Positions 2,915 to 58,053 of a DNA stretch of 64,000 bases are shown here, one piece after another. This stretch comes from Lytechinus pictus (taxonomy: Eukaryota): assembly GCF_037042905.1 (NCBI RefSeq), contig NC_087251.1, positions 21,888,001-21,952,000 of the forward strand, in the 5' to 3' direction. Position 1 is the first letter of the stretch. Each line of letters starts with the position of its first letter. Under the pieces are notes generated by a model. The model was not told the DNA's origin. It saw only the letters and a program-made list of their open reading frames with translations, and searched no databases. The position numbers and the translations under genes are program-made.

Positions 2915-4446
2915 TTAAGAAATGAACATGTCATGTCTATATCAATTGAGATACATGTGATTTTTTTTTCCACCTCTCATCAATTGATGCAAAAAAAATC
3001 ACAAGATCTTTAATTTTAAACTTTGCCCTCAAATGTATCATATATTTCAACCTCTACATCTTTTATTCATGATTAATCTAAAGATGCCTTTCCCTTTGAG
3101 AGTATTCTGAAAATAATATTCATTCAGAATGAATTGGGAGAAACAACAACTAATGGTTGAAATTCCAGTGACGTTAGAGATTTATATTTGATTTTTGCTG
3201 AAAGTGGCTTTATAACTCAGATTATTAGCAAAGAATGCAGTCAATTTACTACATTAATCCACTTGGCTTCTTCATATTTGCAGTGAACTTGTGCCGTAAT
3301 GGTATCCCCCTATCAAAAGGCAGCACTGATGATGGCACAATAAGTATGAGGGAGTATTAATTTTGGGTCATAATACAGTGTAATAGTCTTATTGGGTTTG
3401 AACAGTTTTGGAACCAGGAAGGGGTGGGGGGGGGTCAAAGGGGCCTTATTTACATCCAGTTTAGATGACATTTTCAAAATCATGCTTGTATGATTTTCTT
3501 AATTCATTCAACTCAAGCTCTCCATTTGTTGTTGGCCTAGACTTGACCTTCAAATGAAAAAGATATTTTTGCTTACAAGATTACAAGGAGACATTTGTCA
3601 TTTCATTGAAATAAGGTCCCTAAATTTTATATTGTTTTACTCTATGGTATCCGGTGTGGGTGGCCGCGTATTGACAGCAATGTCAGAAGCTTTCATTCAC
3701 TTATCAACCAATCACGTTTTGTTTGTCTTCCTGTTTCAAGAGCAATGTACTTGACATTCCTCTTCAGTGTCTATCAAAAAAACTTCCCATATTCATACAG
3801 CTGATGTTGTATGATATGACATATGACCTAAAATTCTCTTTTTTTCCATTACAAGGTGTTATATGAATGGTAGTATATTCACTTATATACAGTAGTTATC
3901 TTCTTAGGTTCCATACGATGCATGCAATAATGATTACTTTATTTTGGTAAGTGTGAATGATCAAACCTCAAGGATTAGAGTATCTTTATTTTCAAAAGCA
4001 CTGTACAACTAAAATAACAGAATCCCATCCACACCCTCCACTAATGCTGTAGTTCTCATTTACTTAAGTTGTAGAACTGGTCTGGGATTTTTTTGTTGTT
4101 GCCCAGTATCAGAAATTAATTTGTTTTTTACAAGAAACCTTGATCTTTACTTTTTACATAGAACGTGTCTTTTCTTGTTAGTGTTCTTGATATGTGGTGT
4201 GGGATGATTCTTGGACTAACAAGGAATGAACTTTCCATTTCCTGAATTGCCTTTGAAATAATGTAACTCTTTCTTTTTTAAATATTTTTTTTCTTTATAC
4301 TAATTCCTTTAGCTTAAAATTAACCTTTTCTTTGAGAACATAACCTAGAATAATCGCTAGAGGGTATTCATTTGTCTCGCAATCTACTATGGTCAACAAG
4401 GAAATTCGTGATCACTCTCGCAAAAAGTGTTCACTAGCTTACAAGT

Positions 4447-4487
4447 TCACGAGCTTTCGAGTGCCGCTGCAACTCTTTATCAAGTGA
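4447..4487 (-). ncRNA. Minimal type I hammerhead ribozyme motif in the PLE pseudo-LTR
   Basis: Minus strand: ucac UUGAUAA a gag-u-ugc agcg gca-cuc GAAA gc UC guga; helix I ucac/guga, helix II gag(u)ugc/gcacuc, minimal helix III. Confidence 0.8.
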
Positions 4488-4643
4488 CGAAAATTATCTG
4501 ATACGGTAGTCTATTTATACCAATCCCCAGGACCGAACGCGGGAACAATAGGTGGGCACTGATCCGTTATGTGATTGGTCGGGCGTATATGCAAATAAGC
4601 CGGAGGTATATGCAAATACGCCGCGAGTCGGCAATATGCAAAT
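4482..4643 (-). promoter_or_regulatory. Putative Pol II promoter in the PLE pseudo-LTR
   Basis: Octamers ATGCAAAT at 4589, 4610 and 4636; CCAAT on minus at 4573-78; TATAAATA on minus at 4512-19; Inr-like TCACTT at 4482-87. Confidence 0.55.
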
Positions 4644-4664
4644 AAGACAAAATTGGCGGGCTCG

Positions 4665-5850
4665 CTAGTTTCCCGTGGGTGGGGGTTGACTAGCTGAGCG
4701 GTCCCTCGCTCGGGGCCGGGATCGGTCGGGTCGGCGTGCACTGCCAGGTAAGGGGGTATTGTGCTGTTGGATGGTTCGCATCCAGAAATTGGGGATGTCA
4801 ATCCCGCTGTCTCTGTTGAAGTTGTTAGGACAAAGACGTATACTAATAGCCTCCTTAATCCTGCGTGTATACCAATGTCTTTCTTTGGCAACGCAATGTA
4901 CACCCTTCCAATCTGGGTGGTGTTGCTTCTCCCAAGCATGTTCTGCCACCGCGGATGTGTCGGTTCGCTGTAACCGAACATCGGGCTTGTGTTCAGAAAT
5001 GCGTTCAATTATCGGTCGGGCTGTTTCACCGATGTAAGACCCGTCACATCCCTGGCAAGGAATATTGTATACTACGCCATCACGTCTGTGATCAGGGATG
5101 GGGTCTTTGGGGTGCACAAGCTGTTTGTGTAGGGTGGTGTCCGAGCGGAAAACCGTTCGGATACCGTGACCTTCTAATCGGCGTTTGAGTTGTGGTGAAA
5201 GACCATCTATGTATGGCAAGACTGTGCAAGTCTTGAAAACCTTCTGATCCCTTGGCGGTTGTTTGTTCTTGAAAGTGTTCTCGATAAAACGGCGTGGGTA
5301 GCCGTTGCTGTATAAGGCGCCACGTATGTGTGCTCTTTCTTTCGGGAGTTCAGGTGGGTGAGTTATAAGACGTGCTGCTCTGTCGAACAGGCATTTAACA
5401 AGACCCTTCTTGACTGATTTGTCATGATGAGAATCATATGGAATGTATTGGTCTGTATGAGTGGGCTTGCGGTAGACAGAGGTGGAGAGTTTCCCGCCCT
5501 CATGTCTTTGGACTAGCGTGTCAAGGAATGCTAATTTCCCTCCTTGCTCAGTCTCCAGAGTGAACTGGATGGACGGTTGCTGGCTATTCATGTATGCGAG
5601 TAGGCTGTCCGTTTTGGAACTATTTACAATTATGAAAGTGTCATCGACATATCTCTTCCACACCTGAGGGCGGCATGTGGGAGGACACTTGGGCAAGGCG
5701 TTCTGTTCAAACCTTCCATATATAGGTTAGCCACAACCGCTGAGACTGGGCTACCCATCGCTGCTCCTTCTGTTTGCTCATAGAAAGAGCCTCTGTACAG
5801 AAAATATGTGGATCTGAGGACGAACTCCAGGAGTTCGGCTATTTGTTCGG
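4665..5850 (-). pseudogene. Penelope-like reverse transcriptase (C-terminal half) + GIY-YIG endonuclease, one frameshift
   Basis: Motifs GAAMGSPVSAVVANLYME, WKRYVDDTF, LAFLD, VYRKPTHTDQY and GVVYNIPCQGCDGSYIGET...R..EH; ORFs 5630-5863 and 4665-5696 join if a 1-bp deletion near 5712 is restored (ME-x-FEQNALPKC). Confidence 0.95.
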
Positions 5851-8458
5851 CGAGAGTGATCACGAATTTCCTAGAAAGCTAGTGAACACTTTTTGCGAGA
5901 GTGATCACAAATTTCCTTGTTGACCATAGTAGATTGCGAGACAAATGAATACCCTCTAGCGATTATTTCATTCCGCAATAATGAACCTATTTAGTATAAC
6001 CTAGAATAGTTTATAGAAAATTGCAAGATTTCATTCTTATATGTGGGCCATCCTGGGAAAGTGGGTATTATAGGTGAAATTTTGGATTTTGGTTTTTTTA
6101 TGTTTTCTGGTACATGGACACATGTACAATGTGTATACAAAATATTAGAGTCTAATTCATATTTAAATTAGAGATATGGCCAATTGAATCAGGGGTACCC
6201 CCCCCCCCCCTGCCTGGCTGTGTGGGTCGTCATGGTAGTCGGGCTTATTATTAATCTTTTCATGATAAGGAAATGTTGGTTCTTTTGTAACGCCCAACAT
6301 ACCTGGCATAGGCGAGGTGATCTTTTGTAGTGCAGACATAATTTTTATATATACACAGCTAGGCGAATACAATAAAACAAATTATTCTACATATTCAACC
6401 ACACCCACACTAGAACCCACACCCACACACTCACATTACATGCAAAAAAAAAACCCTTATGGAGACTATTTGTCATACTATATATAGTTCGTCATAGCGC
6501 GTAGTTTTAACATGGGAGGAGGTTCCCAGATCCAATGACCAGGGGCAGATGGTGTTGGGTTATTCATCTGATTTTTTTGTTGTTGGGGGGGGGGGGGGCA
6601 GCTTATCATTTTTTTTTGGGGGGGGTGCCCACCCCCACAGGCGCCGCAGAACATTTTTTTGAAAATGGGAGGGGCTGTCCATGCAAAAGAAAAAAAATCA
6701 CAATCAAATGGTAATTTTTTACATGTTTATACATGCGTTCTGGGGAAAAAAAAGGGGGCCAAAGCCCCTGCCCACCTCCATCCTAGATTTGTCCCTGCCC
6801 TTAACCCCCCCCCAAAAAAAAAGACACCACCTTGCTGTTTGTCCATACTTCACTTTCTCTCAAAGTAAAATCTAAAAAAAAAATCATGCTTAAGCTTTGG
6901 AAAATAACCACAAACAAAATTCAATTTTGCAAAACCAAGTTTTTTTCGGTGGCAATACACAATAGTGAAAAGCTGATGCGAGCTACATTTCATAAAGATT
7001 TAATATGACAGCAACTCTTGATGAAATATCAACTTTCATTGAACTAGCAAATCAGGAAGCAGAAGGTTCACTGTTTTCATGGTAGTTTTCATTCGAGCAA
7101 GGGATCATATCAACATTTAATGAAATGGGCCACATTTGGTTTATTTTTAGGGATGGGGTAGTCATGAAAATATATTTCACAAATTGCTGCCAAATTATCT
7201 GGATCACTGAAGGATTTTTTTTTTGGTGACTTCGTTTGTAAAGAAGAATAAAACTGTGCATAAAAACTTGGCTCCACATATTAATACGACAGGTATTATA
7301 ACTAACAAATACTCACAAATACATAGTCATCTTTTCTCTGCTACACTCTGTACACGTGTGTAATGATATGCGTTGTAAACATCTTATGCTTGAATAAAAA
7401 AATAATATCAGAGTTTAATTCTTGATATGGAAGAGACTACATACATTTACTCTCTTCTATGCAGCAGTATTAGCAAAACTCAGGAATGTGCATTGCTCTC
7501 CACTGTCCAAATTTGCACTAAAAAGGATATAAAACACGATAATCTCTCCTTAGTGTGTGTGTTTAACATTATCACAAACTTCTTAATACAGCAGCAAACT
7601 TACCACATTTCAATTTTCTACAATGACATCCTTCTAATCGGTTAGCAAACGTTACAGATTAAGTTTAATTTTTTTTATCGAAAAACTTCAGAGTTTGTTC
7701 ATTCAAAGTAAAACATTTATTCATTGTTAAATTTCCTCTCCTACCGGGGAGGCCGCTCTATTTGGAAAATCCAGTTGATAGCTTATCTGGGAGTATCTGA
7801 GAGACTATGTCAGCAGGGTTCACCAAAGGGGATAATTTTCTTCCTCTACATTGTGTGCTTTCTTCATGTTCCAGTCTTAAAAATACCACGTTCCGATGAC
7901 TCAAATCTACATGTTTGATGAATGCAATTGAAAAGTTCACCGATATTAATGTGTTATAAAAACAGTCACATTACACTCTCATTTCTTCATGATTCATGGA
8001 CATTTATCAACAACATGATATTTAAAATACATTAACTTTTCACTCTTTGGCTTTGTGTAAATGGTACTTGTATTTCTAATAAAGGTGGAAGTACTCCCTG
8101 ATGTCATATTTTTCTACCAAAAATAATAAGATTTAACTATTGCTGGGTAAAAAAAATCCCTCCAAAATTCATGAGATGTTCATATTTAAATGTTTAATTT
8201 TGATATATCACTTGCAAAAAGCTTTCTCTGCATGAGCCTTTATCCAAATTCTATATATTTTTTTCATTTTTTATTGTTTTTATCATTTTATACTTTTTAT
8301 ATTTTCCATAATTCTAGATTTCATGTACTAATAGTGGTAAAATTAATTTTGAAACAATATCTTATAAAACGGCAATTAATTCGTGAAAAACTGACATGAT
8401 AAAGTCAAAACTGGCACACTATTTCCATATAGAATATGGATAAAGCATGGAAAGCTAC

Positions 8459-10677: not shown

Positions 10678-11411
10678 TTAGGATTATTAAACATGTGGGA
10701 TGTTTTTTAATTCACATTTAAGACAGTAAGATTCTGGCCATGATATTCAATTGTAGAAAAAGGCTCGCTCACGCTTTTAATGTTGCTGGTGATAAATATT
10801 ATGAATATCTGAATCACCAAAGTCATAGTAGAGTGACAAACCTCAGCTGAGAGAGGTATGCAATTTAACACAGTACCACATATAAATGATTCATTCAATT
10901 TCATTTATTCATTTTCCAGTAGTGATGAAATCTTCAAAAAAAAAATACAGTCACAAGTACATTGCAAAATATTATACGAAACATACAAAAGAGCAAACAT
11001 CAAAGGAAAAATGTAAATTTATGTGATAATGAAAGTATAATGTACCTATATTTGCCTGGGTCATCCTCTTTATAATTTTTAATATACTGTTATTTTTTGG
11101 ATGAATGGCTAACCAAACCAATTATGTAATGTTTTGTTTTAGAATTGTGTTTTATAGTTATAATCATGTAATGGGAGTTAAATATTTTATGATCTACCTA
11201 AAATCTTGAAAAGAGGAGTAATATCTAACATGAAAGGTATAAAAAGCAGAGTTTTCTGTTTATTCAAATGCATATGTTTAATTTATCTTCCCAATGTGTA
11301 AATTACAACATAATCCATCTATGACTACACCACATTTGTACTTAATCATAAGTACAGAGTACATTTAAGTACATTTACTTCTCCCTTTTATTAAGTATGT
11401 TTGATTGTTAA

Positions 11412-12013
11412 AGGTCAAGTCCACCCCAGAAAAATGTTGATTGGAATAAATAGAGAAAAATCAAACTAGCATAACACTGAAAATTGCATCAAAATCGGAT
11501 GTAAAATAAGAAAGTTATGGCATTTTAAAGTTTCGCTTATTTTTCACAAAATAGTGATATGCACAACTCAGTGACATGCAAATGAGTCATTCGATGATGT
11601 CCATCACTCACTATTTCTTTTGTTTTTTATTGTTTGAATTATACAATATTTCATTTTTACAGATTTGACCATAGGGACCGACTCAACTGAACCATATAAT
11701 ATTAAACAATGCTAATTCTACATGTTCGGCGAGGAATTAATCACTGTTTCACTTGACCATGAGGAGAAAATTAGAATATATCATATTTCATATAATAAAA
11801 TTCAAAAGAAATAGTGAGTGGATGACGTCATCATTCTCCTCATTTGCATACCAACCAGGATGTGCATATAAATGTTTTGTGAAATTAATCGAAATTTTAA
11901 AATGTCATAACTTTCTTATTTTACATCCGATTTTGATGAAATTTTTAGTGTTATGCTTGTAGGATTTTTCTCTTTTTATTCAAATCAATTTTTTGTTGGG
12001 GTGGACTTGTCCT
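11412..12013. mobile_element. Kolobok-like MITE with long TIRs
   Basis: TTAA at 11408-11 and 12014-17; termini aggtcaagtccacccca / tggggtggacttgtcct; inverted similarity extends about 200 bp. Confidence 0.9.
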
Positions 12014-12170
12014 TTAAAACATTTATTTTTTTTACTGCCTCTTGGAGGCACTCATCAGTGATTTTAGGCAAGAGAAAATACATTCTTTTGAATTATTTAC
12101 ATCCTGTGCATGCAAGAATGATAAAAAAAAACATGTGTACCCCCTTCGCCTTCTACTGGGGTTGGGCTTT

Positions 12171-29728: not shown

Positions 29729-29880
29729 ATACCTCGGTCACATTTCCTCTACAGCGAGTCAAAAACAGCCGTTTTATTCATTTTTATTCAAACCACCTAT
29801 ATGTAGCTGGTACAATAAATGTTAAACGGCTGTTTTCAACTCGCCGTACGGCCGCCGTAGAGCAAATGTGACCGAGGTAT
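29729..29880. mobile_element. Harbinger-like MITE, copy 2 (family of 23384-23513)
   Basis: Same TIRs atacctcggtcacattt / aaatgtgaccgaggtat; the central segment is inverted relative to copy 1. Confidence 0.85.
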
Positions 29881-30164
29881 TAGAAACACATATTTTGTTG
29901 CGCAAGATTTGCCTATGCAGTATGAGATGGTATTGCACAAAGCAGCGAAATCTAACAAATATCTAATAGACTACTGTATAGAACTTGCTGTTCAATGTAC
30001 CAAAGTACCATAAAGAAAAGTTTAATGGTATGAGAAAATGTGCGAAATATATAATGCGCACAATAATCAAAGCAATGTAATTTGGAACAGAGACCAGAGA
30101 TACTATCATAAAGAGCTGCATGTAAGTCGTACATCTGTGATCATACTGATCTTGTGATATAAGA

Positions 30165-34630: not shown

Positions 34631-35685
34631 TTAATTTTTTTTTCCTTCTGTGAAGTGATATGAGGTCTTGTGTGAATGAAACTTAGCAAAGGAGGGCAAG
34701 GCCGGAGGAATCCATTTTGATTATATACCGATGATGTTTGTATATCTCGGGTCTTCATATCCACCCGTCACTGGCCATACACTCACAGACTAGTAATACC
34801 AAATATCAATCACAAATACCAGAACACTGTGACAGGAGGATGATATAACCTCTCTATTCTATTTTGAGTTATGAAAGGAGTGAAAGGAGATATTCATTGA
34901 GAGAAAGAGAGATGTAGGTTTGGTAGGGGTGGCATATAGACTCTAAAATTACAGGGATTATAAATAAATCCAAGTCATCTGTGGATTGGTGATTGATTAA
35001 TTGAACCTTTGATTAAGATTTAAAACCCCCCAAATTTCTTTATTAATCTAAAACGATTTAAAATATAATCTTTAAGAATTTTAATTTAAATCCAGAGGTC
35101 ATTTTGTCATTATATTCACAGCCAGTTATATTCAAGTGTAGGTTATGGTGTAGATACAGTGTCATGTATTATGCTGAAATCCATTGCAAATTGACAAACA
35201 AAGTTGACTTTTTAAGACCAAATATTTTTTGTCTTCCCATTGAGATGAAGATCAAGATGCAGGAACTTGTTGATTTGTCTTTTCTTTGAGCATTCTCATT
35301 ATACTGTATTTGACTGGTTTTCACTTAACTAGTTTAAGAAAGTAGATGACATCAGGGTCTAAGTTATCATTTTGATGCAATTTTTATATTACATTTATAT
35401 GTATTTTTGATTGAAAAGAGAAAGAGATGACAGGGATAATAGAGGAAAAAAAATCAAGAGAAAAAAAAATGAATTCCCAGAAAATGTGTGATAGGGAGAG
35501 AGAGAGATAGGGGTGGTGATGAAGAGAGAGAAAGAGAGAAGTTGGGTCAAGGAAAATAAGGTCAAGATCTGTATAAATTGCTTTGCTACCAGAGAAACTC
35601 AAAGAACTTGAGAACAGGGGTGTGGAAGAATAAAAAAAGAAGAGATTGACCCAACCTTGATTGATCCCGGTATGATTGAAAAGTA

Positions 35686-35929
35686 CACTGCAAAAACTCT
35701 GGTGTTGATTTAACACCAGCCCGGAATCTATATATGTCCACACCAGAGAAGCGTTAAACAACACCGGTTTGGGTATTAGTCTAACACCAGATAGGTGTTT
35801 ATTTAAAAAAAAATTAGTTTTAAAACAGCATTGGTTTGATTCCAAAATGGTGTTGTTTCAATACTTCTCTGGTGTGGACATATATAGATTCCGGGCTGTT
35901 GTTAAATCAACACCTGAGTTTTTGCAGTG
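35686..35929. mobile_element. Palindromic CACTG-terminated MITE (CMC/EnSpm-like)
   Basis: About 80-bp near-perfect TIRs cactgcaaaaactc...ccggaatctatatatgtccacaccagagaag; TA on both sides. Confidence 0.9.
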
Positions 35930-36767
35930 TAATTATGATTAGAAAGAAACTGCCTCAGATGCATTTGTTGTTACTCATCTATATTGCTGTTACATATTAT
36001 TTGCGACTAGAAAAATACAAACACATTGTAAAAAGGGTAGTTTTGCCAGTAGAGATGTGACGCACACGTAATGCATTCAAAGGGTTAAAGAAAGCAGGAA
36101 AAGGATTGTTTCTGTAGTAGCAAGCCAACGTATAACAATGATGTCAGCCTACTAAAGTTTGTCAAGATTGAATAATTAAGAAAAGTAAGTTAATTCTCAC
36201 ATGTGCATATCACCAGTGTTGTGTATATACATGTATAACTGTTCCATGAAATTAAGTGATTTTGAGAAGTGTATCTGATTTTTATAAAATTTCCAGGGTA
36301 ATTTCCCCCTCTCATATGCATATTACCTTGTTGTTGAGTTGGACTTGGTCTTCAATGGTTACATGATTGCATGTACATTTTGATATTCTACAAGTGTTTT
36401 TTTGTTTGTTATTTATCCTGTTTAATGTGGCAATAATACTGAAGCCTAATATTTTTTTCTTCTCCCATCTCTCCGCTTCTCCCCTCCTCTCTCTCTCTCT
36501 CTTTCCTTCCCTCCTTCTCCTTTCTTTTTCTGCTCTTCTGTGTTTTCATTCATGTACCTGTCACTGACTGGTCCAACTTTACTCATCAGGTAAGTGGTTA
36601 CAATTTTTCTATATATATATTAATTCAAATGTGTGTCAGAGCCTATTAGTAGGATGCGTGACAGAAGGGTGTGGTTGCCTTAGATGAGGAATCACTGAAA
36701 GGGTAAACTCTTGGGATAAGTTATGCCTCTTTTTTTTCTCACCACCAATTGAATACTTCTAGAGTAA

Positions 36768-38489: not shown

Positions 38490-39165
38490 TTTTTGTCTCG
38501 CCCACCAGAGGTGAAGGCAAGACTTGGGGATCCAATTGTTGTCTGTCGTCCGTCCGTCACAAACCTTATGACACATAACTCCACAACCGTAAGTCACTTT
38601 TCAACCAAACTTGGATGGTAGATGGACTTAGGGGACCTGCATGTTATGCTGCAGTCGGAGGTCACATGGTAAGGTCAAAGGTCATTTTCAGGCCAACGTT
38701 AAGCTTACATGCAAGACTCTTATGACACCTAACTCCGCAACCGTAAGTCACTTTTCACCAAAACTTGGATTGTCGATGTAGTGATGAGACTTGCATGTCA
38801 TGCTGCAGTCAGAGGTCACATGGTAAGGTCAAAGGTCATTTTCAGTTCAACATTAAAGTTTTCATGCAAGACTCTCTTATGACACATAACTCTGCAACCG
38901 TAAATCACTTTTCAACCAAACTTGGATGGTAGATGTACTTAGGGGACCTGCATGCTATTGTGTTGGGAGGTCACATGGTGGGGTCAAAGTTCATTTTAAG
39001 GTCAACATTACAGTTTACGTGCAAGAATCTTATGACAAGTGTTAGTCCATCCCAATCATTTCATTATGAAGTTTCGATACAATTCTGTTGCGTGCCCTCG
39101 CAAATCACGATATTTCTGGTTATTTACATAAGTGGGCGAGACAGAAAATCGCTTTTGCCTTGTTT
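38490..39165 (+). mobile_element. Tsp/pearl/HINE-like (Helentron-associated) element with three ~154-bp internal repeats
   Basis: Subterminal IRs tgtctcgcccac (38494) / gtgggcgagaca (39132); 5' hairpin; (CGTC)n microsatellite; tandem core; ends cttgttt; T-rich insertion site. Confidence 0.88.
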
Positions 39166-43994: not shown

Positions 43995-44117
43995 GTTATT
44001 CATTTAATTATTCAAAATCATGATGTAAATGTTTATTCTTCCTCAACAACTCTCCTATCTTTCACTCTATAACATGGGGAACGATATGCCAAAGGCTTCA
44101 TTCCCTTTTGCCCTTAA

Positions 44118-44702
44118 AGGAGAATGAAACCTTTGGAAGAAGATAGCTTGTGTGAAAAACAGAAAAATCAAAGAAACAGATCAACGAAAGTTTCAGAAAA
44201 ATCGGACAAATAATGAGAAAGTTATGAGCATTTGAATATTGCGATCGCTAATGCCATGGAGATCCTCACATTGGCAATGCGACAAAGATGTGTGATGTCA
44301 CTTGTGAACAACTCTCCCCATTACTTTAGTATATATTTCACTTAAACTGCCTCTTTTATCACATCTATCAGTAGATCATGTGTTCTTTCTATAGGAGGGC
44401 GTGTAATACAGACTTTTAAAGAATACATCATGGATAAAGAGTTTGTATCACCATAAGAAAAATCAAAAAGAGACATTTTGGGGGTATTTTATAGTCCAAC
44501 AAAGGGAAAGTTGTTCACATGTGACATCACACATCCTTGTCGCATTGCCATTGGGAAGATCTCCATGGCATTAGTGATTGCAATATTCAAAGGCTCAAAA
44601 CTTTCTCATTATTTGTCAGATTTTTATCAAACTTTATTTGTTCTTATTCTTTGATTTTTCTCTTTTGACACAAGCCTACTTGTTCCAAGGTTTCATTCCC
44701 CT
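44118..44702. mobile_element. Kolobok-like MITE with about 200-bp TIRs
   Basis: TTAA at 44114-17 and 44703-06; termini aggagaatgaaacct / aggtttcattcccct; inner arms ggcaatgcgacaaagatgtgtgatgtcac / gtgacatcacacatccttgtcgcattgcc. Confidence 0.9.
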
Positions 44703-45499
44703 TTAAGTTACTGCTCTACCAACAAGATCGATAGAGAATTTTGAGATGAATTGAATGCTGGCTCATGCTGATTATAGATCTATTGGAATTTGTCCTTGAT
44801 ACTGATGAAGATGCTGAAGATAATGACCCCTTTTTTAAACGATAAGTGAAAATGAAATTTAATATGAGGCAAAGAACTAGAATTTCCCATTCAAGCATTA
44901 AGGAAAAATTAAATTTAAACGTAGAAAAAGCCAAATATAACTTGGATCAAACCATTTCCTCGCTCAAAACATATTTTTTTTATAGAGTATGCAGTAGGAA
45001 CAAGTACGATTGATGATCAAACACTGCACCATTAAACACAAAGCATGGTGGGGGATCGTAGGAAGAGAGTACGTTGAATTTGTCACATAACCAGATTATT
45101 AATCGTTTGTAAATATTTCAGGAGACAAAGCTTTTAATAATTCACGGTTAATCAGATCTGTCTCTGATTTTTATTCATGGCAAATTAAATTCAGTGCATC
45201 TAAAAACGCATTTGGGAGTTGGGGATATCTTTCCCCATGAAAATGTGACGTTCTTCTCTGCCTAATGTGGGCCTTTTTTTTTGTCAGTATACTCGCCTCT
45301 TTAGAAATGACTGGGGTAGAGTGACGTTAGAGTGTCTCATTCAACCACGATAGCTATTATTTCCAACTTATTCATCACAGATGAGTTCATTCAGCAGGTT
45401 GGTCAAGGAGGAAAGCTGTTAAGATATTTTTTCATCTGGTCATCTGATAATATCTTTGTTCCATGGCCAAAGCCTATAATCTTATATCACGACTTTCGT

Positions 45500-49914: not shown

Positions 49915-50172
49915 GTACTTTAAAAAAAATGCATTGTGCTTTTTGTACACGCTAGATTTCAGAGATTGAAAAATAAATCCAGATCAGATGTTGATAGTGA
50001 CAAGTCAAATTTTGGATTGGCATTTTCAGATCTTTAAGATTCTTTTTTTAAGATTTAAATCTGATTTGAGAGTTCGACTTGTCATTATTCACTGCTGATC
50101 TGGATATATACTTTTAAATACCAGAAATCTAGTGTGTGCAAACAATACGAGGCATTCTTTTTTAAAAGTGCA
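49915..50172. mobile_element. Palindromic MITE remnant
   Basis: Arms cacgctagatttc..atccagatcag..gtgacaagtc / gacttgtca..ctgatctggat..gaaatctagtgtg; interior resembles 51277-51502. Confidence 0.7.
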
Positions 50173-51276: not shown

Positions 51277-51502
51277 CACTCTAAATTCCAAGGATTTAGA
51301 ATAAATCCAGATCGGCTGTGAATAGTGACCAGCCGAATATTAGATTTAGATCTTGTTGATTTAAATATAAATCTAAAAGATTTGAATTTAAATCTTTTGA
51401 GATTTAAAAGTTAATCCTTAAGATTTAAAATAAATTAAAAATTCGGCTGGTCACGATTCACTGTCAATTTGGAGTTATTTTAAATCCTTGGAGTTTAGAG
51501 TG
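51277..51502. mobile_element. Palindromic CACT-terminated MITE
   Basis: cactctaaattccaaggattta..gtgaccagccgaat / attcggctggtcac..taaatccttggagtttagagtg. Confidence 0.85.
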
Positions 51503-57158: not shown

Positions 57159-58053
57159 CGGCGGCGTCAACACCAAATCTTAACCTGAGGTTAAGTTTTT
57201 GAAATGACAGCATAACTTAGAAAGTATATGGACCTAGTTCATGAAACTTGGCCATAAGGTTAATCAAGTATTACTGAACATCCTGCCTGAGTTTCATGTC
57301 ACATGACCAAGGTCAAAGGTCATTTAGGGTCAATGAACTTAGACCATGTTGGGGGAATCAACATCAAAATCTTAACCTAAGGTTAAGTTTTTGAAATGTC
57401 ATCATAACTTAGAAAATATATGGACCTAGTTCATGAAACTTATACATAAGGTTAATCAAGTATCACTGAACATCCTGCATGAGTTTCACGTCACATGACC
57501 AAGGTCAAAGGTCATTTAGGGTCAATGAACTTTGGCCGAATTGGGGGTATCTGTTGAATTACCATCATAACTTTGAAAGTTTATGGATCTGATTCATGAA
57601 ACTTAGACATAATAGTAATCAAGTATTACTGAACATCCTGTGCAAGTTTCAGGTCACATGATCAAGGTCAAAGGTCATTTAGGGTCAATGAACTTTGGCC
57701 AAATTGGGGTATTTGTTGAATTACAGCCATAAATTTGAAAGTGTGTTGGTCTAGTTCATAAAACTTGGACATAATAGTAATCAAGTATCACTGAACATCC
57801 TGTGCGAGTTTCAGGTCACATGATCAAGGTCAAAGGTCATGTAAGGTCAAAGAACTTTGGCCACGTTGGGGGTATTTGTTGAATAGCCATCATATCTCTA
57901 TAAGTGTATTGTTTTAGTTCATAAAACGTGGAAATAAGAGTAACCAAGTATCACTGAACATCTTGTGCGAGTTATAGTAGTTTTCAAAATCAGCACTGCT
58001 GCTATATTGAATCGCGTGATGCAGGTGAGACGGCCAGAGGCATTCCACTTGTT
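57069..58053 (+). mobile_element. Tsp/HINE-like element with (GGC)n microsatellite and about 4.7 internal repeats of 162-192 bp
   Basis: Subterminal IRs gtctcacctgcat (57074) / atgcaggtgagac (58019); 5' hairpin gtctcac..gtgagac; GGC run 57118-57166; ends cttgtt; T-rich site. Confidence 0.9.

Follow-up and report, generated by a model that had tools for sequence, protein, structure and literature searches.

A Penelope-like element on the minus strand of the Lytechinus pictus DNA analyzed here (the window, 64,000 nucleotides in all) probably carries its own upstream, U3-like RNA polymerase II (Pol II) promoter. This promoter would consist of an ancestral CCAAT/TATA core that directs a start at helix I of a hammerhead ribozyme, with three octamers taking the place of an upstream CCAAT array. 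The first-pass annotation had proposed a minus-strand Pol II promoter starting at the hammerhead, and the clade-wide positions of TATA and CCAAT in related elements support this proposal. All the annotated motifs were found, in minus-strand order three octamers, a CCAAT box, a TATA box, and the hexamer TCACTT (Table 1), together with a further, weak CCAAT at 4656-4652 on the same strand. From these motifs and their spacing, we infer transcription, its exact start, factor binding, and stage specificity. Among Penelope-like elements, only the Drosophila promoter has been dissected; TATA and CCAAT held at a fixed distance from the ribozyme across a clade would predict the exact 5' end of the RNA.

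A Young, Truncated Penelope-like Element

The element that bears the motifs lies on the minus strand and is recognizable from its sequence as a Penelope-like element, young and truncated at its 5' end. Its 3' pseudo-LTR contains the motifs, immediately ahead of the hammerhead. It has the pseudo-LTR, the 5' truncation accompanied by an inverted copy, and the target-site duplication of canonical endonuclease-bearing members, a standard arrangement (PMC8557442 and PMC3846280). Its ORF is open from 5726 to a stop at 4665, with a single frameshift near 5720, and contains YVDD and VYNIPC...SYIGET motifs, i.e., a reverse transcriptase (RT) followed by a C-terminal GIY-YIG endonuclease in one frame. 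The product is 50–73% identical to full-length homologs bearing PF00078, and a Pfam scan of the element's own protein fragment scored nothing. Its nearest named proteins are Lytechinus gene models (89–94% identity over 186–231 aa), and it is 71% identical to an S. purpuratus protein.

The insertion looks young, since the leader and its inverted copy are 98.9% identical across 92 bp and the target duplication is perfect. The leader resembles that of a related locus, L081, and, by eye, that of the full-length L001; both relatives read ACG at the site of the short upstream ORF. The inverted piece contains neither the promoter nor the hammerhead core, and the N-terminus read from its ATG resembles those of L001 and of protein P0006. 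The inverted junction (5850-5875, plus strand) is composite, with a 23-nt match to 4421-4399, three unmatched bases, and then the main inverted copy, and looks like the product of a template jump. The promoter region (4484-4664) is CpG-rich, with an observed/expected ratio of 1.5 versus 0.55 window-wide, which fits young or unmethylated sequence.

Table 1. Features of the element and its flanks (window positions; nt before the core are counted along the minus strand).
Feature	Position	Strand	Remark
Target-site duplication, left copy	4340..4352	+	13 bp, identical to 5996-6008
Element 5' UTR portion of pseudo-LTR	4349..4450	-	past first hammerhead cut site
Upstream ORF in leader, 4 codons	4371-4357	-	from ATG map
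Duplicate of hammerhead 3' half	4429..4439	-	16 nt downstream
Minimal type I hammerhead, U3-A8 core variant	4447..4488	-	motif finder
Inr-like TCACTT	4487-4482	-	helix I 5' strand (TCAC) and core U3-U4
TATA box TATAAATA	4519-4512	-	first T 36 nt before hammerhead core
Reverse-oriented CCAAT adjoining TATA box	4520..4524	+	role doubtful
CCAAT box, NF-Y-type flanks (GACCAATCAC)	4571..4580 (CCAAT 4578-4574)	-	95 nt before hammerhead core
Octamer 3 (proximal)	4589..4596	-	within 13-nt unit 4599-4587
Octamer 2	4610..4617	-	within 13-nt unit 4620-4608
Octamer 1 (distal)	4636..4643	-	within 13-nt unit 4646-4634
5'-truncated Penelope-like ORF	4665..5849	-	C-terminal RT and GIY-YIG endonuclease
Inverted pseudo-LTR piece at truncated 5' end	5850..5998	+	reaches ORF start, ATG at 5981 (MNLFSI)
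Target-site duplication, right copy	5996..6008	+	perfect match of left copy

Promoter Motifs in Related Elements

We compared the promoter region with 86 related loci, namely the best 80 of 567 confirmed metagenome stretches and six from genome bins. The end of the endonuclease is reached in 67 loci, and in 57 the sequence continues for 120 nt or more past that end. Searched with an HMM made from the hammerhead motifs, 45 of these 57 gave a match and 12 did not. With a threshold of at least 7 of 8 matching positions, a TATA-like box starts 34–38 nt before the core in 27 of the 45 relatives with a hammerhead match. The split follows the tree, as the box is present in 26 of 32 members of this element's clade (46–78% identity, support 99/95) versus one of 13 outside it, the latter being distant, short-UTR elements; six clade members have no good TATA at 34–38 nt. 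Many TATA-positive rows are near-copies, and the clade's DNA set comprises about three deep lineages. Counted by sequence cluster, with this element included, TATA is found in 7 of 13 versus 0.08 expected, for a position window chosen post hoc. The 20-nt spacer between TATA and ribozyme has only 4–8 of 20 bases common to this element and eight other family representatives, and spacer identity between lineages is at chance level. Thus, the spacer sequence has diverged and the TATA position has not, which argues that the distance, rather than the sequence, has been kept.

CCAAT boxes go with the TATA. Of the 32 clade members, 27 have one within 200 nt, mostly between ACCAATCA flanks, compared with 27 of 122 control windows in their ORFs. 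The context of the CCAAT box described here, with flanks of the NF-Y consensus type, is the same or nearly the same in relatives. A pyrimidine-purine step at TATA+30/+31, the first base of helix I, is present in 27/27 clade rows with TATA; it is not independent evidence, because it belongs to the conserved helix I. Ten homologous proteins read through to the core, with a Tyr placed 12 codons before it in five and 11 codons before it in two, which would give, by back-translation and not from DNA, a match to TAT at about -37/-34. Among the matches listed, the expected conservation of the motifs across Penelope-like relatives was thus borne out within the clade for TATA and CCAAT and not for the octamers or the Inr.

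Several loci deserve separate mention. In the relatives P0003, P0006, P0125, P0127, and P0158, the reading frame continues across the entire promoter and terminates within the hammerhead core, which would put the promoter inside coding sequence. L085 and L086 are an exception to the fixed TATA distance; their TATA-like box lies at -23 and their CCAAT at -46, in each case 13 nt nearer than in sister families. In the full-length L001 (300-460, 2830-3071), the 5' copy begins ~17 nt before the core (by eye), a point that differs from the predicted transcription start, and is therefore without TATA and CCAAT, which are present at the 3' end only. L081 (3001-3775) and L082-L086 are Penelope-like elements within bacterial genome-bin contigs, and their sequence is probably animal DNA in bacterial bins. 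Viral contigs yielded 45 pattern matches, with no relative among them.

The octamers (ATGCAAAT on the plus strand, ATTTGCAT on the transcribed minus strand) are, as annotated, spaced 21 and 26 nt start-to-start. An exact octamer was found within 260 nt upstream of the core in 0/45 relatives (best 80 of 567 plus six), and octamer-compatible tripeptides in just 3 of 68 protein tails, in one frame only. In the same zone, the two closest relatives among the matches listed have CCAAT arrays instead, at -144, -118, and -94 in L001 and at -133, -108, -99, and -83 in L081, the octamers lying at -160, -134, and -113. TATA and CCAAT therefore appear ancestral and the octamer triplet, a 13-nt triplication, appears to have been added in this family or copy. 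The simplest reading of these sequences is a module swap in the family, from a CCAAT array to a triplicated POU site, which would make it a clean example of a transposon switching the host factors that serve as its input. The Lytechinus gene models of the family (P0123, P0124, P0131, P0134) end before the 3' UTR and are uninformative on the octamers.

A possible, though not probable, alternative is that only TATA and CCAAT form the promoter and that the three octamers arose by neutral local triplication, perhaps in a few copies alone, and play no part in stage specificity. The triplet consists of three copies of one 13-nt unit, 92–100% identical, so its octamers are not independent. Three octamers within 55 bp have a Poisson P of ~2e-7 if counted as independent, and the fairer figure, the triplet being duplicates, is P ~0.03 for one octamer in 175 bp; the whole window has 15 exact octamers on either strand, 12 of them outside the cluster. 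The absence of octamers from the 45 relatives and the scarcity of compatible tripeptides point the same way. However, not one of the 24 octamer positions has changed, and the spacers between the octamers vary in length and sequence, which hints at selection, as far as one copy can, and the triplet occupies the zone filled, at similar spacing, by the CCAAT arrays of L001 and L081. The embryo/germline tuning put forward in the first-pass annotation would depend on these octamers, absent from 45/45 relatives among the matches listed, and is plausible by analogy. In particular, early H2B expression in sea urchins requires an octamer (Bell 1992, cited in PMC2794192), so an early-embryo input through the octamers is plausible in this animal, if somewhat short of probable.

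It is unlikely that the AT-rich box, held at its fixed distance from the hammerhead, serves as a site at which the element's own endonuclease acts in building tandem copies and is not a promoter element. Anolis PAc does nick AT-rich DNA just downstream of where its ORF joins the pLTR (PMC11167929), but such a role leaves the CCAAT boxes with consensus flanks unexplained, and the 5' ends of extra hammerhead-bearing copies in related loci look scattered (by eye, at ~-17, -24, -39, -64, and beyond -100). It is very improbable that the motifs all arose by chance within a GC-rich 3' UTR, and for TATA and CCAAT this is largely refuted: each short motif is common in the window (71/69 CCAAT and 71/76 TATAWAW per strand), but their positions are conserved across lineages with unrelated spacers, and when the 181-nt region was dinucleotide-shuffled 20,000 times, no shuffle combined an octamer, an NF-Y-like CCAAT, and a TATA so positioned.

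The Hammerhead and the Predicted Start

The usual distance from TATA to +1 is 30–31 nt, which, counted from the TATA at 4519, places the predicted start at G4488, the first base of helix I and within the range of 4485-4490 given in the first-pass annotation. The sequence has both hallmarks of a TATA-dependent Pol II promoter, i.e., a TATA 30–31 nt before a pyrimidine-purine step and activator sites upstream. With this geometry, the RNA would have the whole ribozyme at its very start, preceded by hardly any additional leader. The hexamer TCACTT, annotated as Inr-like, begins 32 nt after the first T of TATA, and a start at its A (+34) would leave just two helix I bases. As an independent Inr it was rejected, being hammerhead helix I and core sequence that is not kept in relatives, which, among the matches listed, mostly have C3 and read TCGCCT, TCACCT, or ACACCT at this site.

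Helix I is formed by 4487-4484/4450-4447, the core runs from 4483, and the predicted cut falls at 4451/4450. The segment 4488-4447 shows U3-A8 core covariation and one extra base before helix II. Judged by the criteria of PMC4209133, it has the core boxes, helices I and II, the G10.1-C11.1 pair, and the palindromic 15.2-16.2 helix III stub. Rfam gave no match at gathering score for a hammerhead, and no convincing second hammerhead was found in the 64-kb window. The fold of the region is about as stable as that of shuffled sequences (z -0.04 to 0.62), as expected for a minimal motif. Apparent U3-A8 cores are also seen in other families (L042 1580-1680, L047 1488-1600, and the tail of protein P0006).

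Cleavage by this lone copy is doubtful, and so is the annotated loss of the first ~35 nt of the transcript. The most stable predicted fold is inactive, at -14.2 kcal/mol versus -9.2 and -8.6 kcal/mol for two near-equal active conformers, a gap of ~5 kcal/mol. A single minimal hammerhead was inactive in vitro (PMC4209133). The related Anolis hammerhead needed protein, was dispensable for in vitro insertion, and had no RNA-seq ends at its site (PMC11167929). If the RNA is cut, the effect on translation could go in either direction (PMC12029980, PMC13725137).

The duplicate of the hammerhead 3' half is absent from the relatives compared, among the matches listed. As a lead only, an intramolecular helix III of 4 bp could form between the two palindromic stubs, with a second cut at 4435/4434; in the predicted ensemble, the second repeat is the pairing partner in helix I (probability 0.997), and helices II and III are unformed. 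The inverted 5' piece starts 6 nt upstream of this putative second cut site.

Known Systems and the Expected Target

H2B promoters are laid out as CCAAT, a single octamer close to TATA, and TATA. The annotated H2B-type layout holds for the parts, octamer, CCAAT, and TATA all being present, and not for their order, because three octamers stand upstream of CCAAT, 70–124 nt upstream of TATA, in place of one between CCAAT and TATA. Newt satellite 2 is also a hammerhead-bearing repeat with an octamer-containing promoter, but the promoter is of the snRNA type and the satellite a non-coding tandem repeat.

The sole Penelope promoter tested so far, in the D. virilis pseudo-LTR, is internal and TATA-less, with an Inr, a DPE, an intron, and ovary elements downstream of the start (PMC2377424). 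In the Lytechinus element, by contrast, CCAAT, TATA, and octamers all lie upstream of the predicted start, and a TATA that is present and conserved does not fit an internal promoter of the D. virilis type; neither the L001 leader nor that of L081 has the donor-like GT seen here at 4442. The pseudo-LTR of Adineta vaga Pen2a has a putative TATA followed by an Inr-like TCACT, and the insert has an inverted pseudo-LTR and a target duplication (PMC3846280). It is, however, a single element with a 20-bp spacing, putative only, and its description, in the part available, includes no hammerhead link and no CCAAT or octamer. The minimal hammerheads of metazoan Penelope-like elements share the U3-A8 core, the extra base before helix II, the G10.1-C11.1 pair, the palindromic helix III stub, and the pseudo-LTR location, with no upstream promoter geometry described in the available part of the source (PMC4209133). 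The LTR of the plant retrozyme NbRZ1 similarly has a Pol II promoter upstream of a hammerhead that cuts off the capped 5' part, and its start could be mapped only with a dead ribozyme. NbRZ1 differs in being a non-autonomous plant LTR element with an efficient ribozyme (PMC12029980).

Promoters in pseudo-LTRs and hammerheads of the minimal type are already known, as is a single rotifer element with a putative TATA plus Inr (PMC3846280). In the open-licence literature, we found no description of an upstream TATA/CCAAT promoter that a whole clade keeps at a fixed distance from a hammerhead or of an octamer module in a Penelope-like element; the nearest accounts found are PMC3846280 and PMC2377424.

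On the preferred reading of an element-borne upstream promoter, the motifs would be carried in the 3' UTR half of the pseudo-LTR, where NF-Y (at CCAAT), a POU factor, and TBP would start Pol II at the hammerhead. In a head-to-tail tandem, the promoter would drive the next, full-length copy, and the RNA would pass through that copy's leader and ORF up to the next hammerhead. With TATA placed for a start at the first base of helix I, this RNA would begin with a complete ribozyme, and in this family or copy a triplicated POU-type octamer would have supplanted the CCAAT array that sister families have upstream. An upstream promoter would explain why a partial tandem is needed for activity, and it would make the role of cleavage testable in sea-urchin embryos, into which reporters are routinely injected. 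This tandem logic agrees with the finding that pseudo-LTR promoters drive the downstream copy, though the promoter described there is internal and TATA-less (PMC2377424).

A further, rather improbable extension is that a clade of marine-invertebrate Penelope-like elements fixes TATA so that the cap falls on the first base of the hammerhead as a cap-removal switch. Uncut, capped RNA would be translated, and cutting, which would remove 38 nt, or 54 nt at the second site, would commit the RNA to circularization and reverse transcription. The sea-urchin family would have added a triple octamer that taps a POU-driven early-embryo program and a duplicated 3' half through which a ribozyme that normally depends on a dimer could form helix III in a single copy.

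Such a promoter ordinarily acts on the element's next copy in the tandem. At this truncated copy, no ORF follows, and any transcript would be short and non-coding, running out into the flanking DNA; the biological consequence of this single copy is probably nil. It is most unlikely that its promoter gives an embryo or germline start to a minus-strand host gene, as had been suggested. The promoter points into flanking DNA, the donor-like GT lies at 4442, and 3' pseudo-LTRs can drive downstream genes (PMC2377424). However, neither Pfam nor a splice-site scan gave credible exon evidence for a host gene in the 4.3 kb that the window covers downstream, both being weak tests. Outside the element, no open frame of at least 55 aa matched Pfam among the 141/141 minus-strand and 150/160 plus-strand frames scanned, a weak test in that the element's own protein is also blank. 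Shorter exons were covered by the splice-site scan only, which gave one splice-bounded minus-strand candidate, 57 nt at 1659-1715, that is unconvincing. The first AATAAA lies at 3990, ~500 nt past the start, and no frame beginning with ATG within the first 600 nt is longer than 36 codons. The insertion's apparent youth also speaks against an adopted host role.

Elsewhere, the window contains long imperfect palindromes, fold-back or MITE-like in character, at 11408-12017, 29729-29882, 35681-35934, 44113-44707, 49919-50166, and 51277-51502, as well as tandem arrays at 38565-39037 and 57167-57973.
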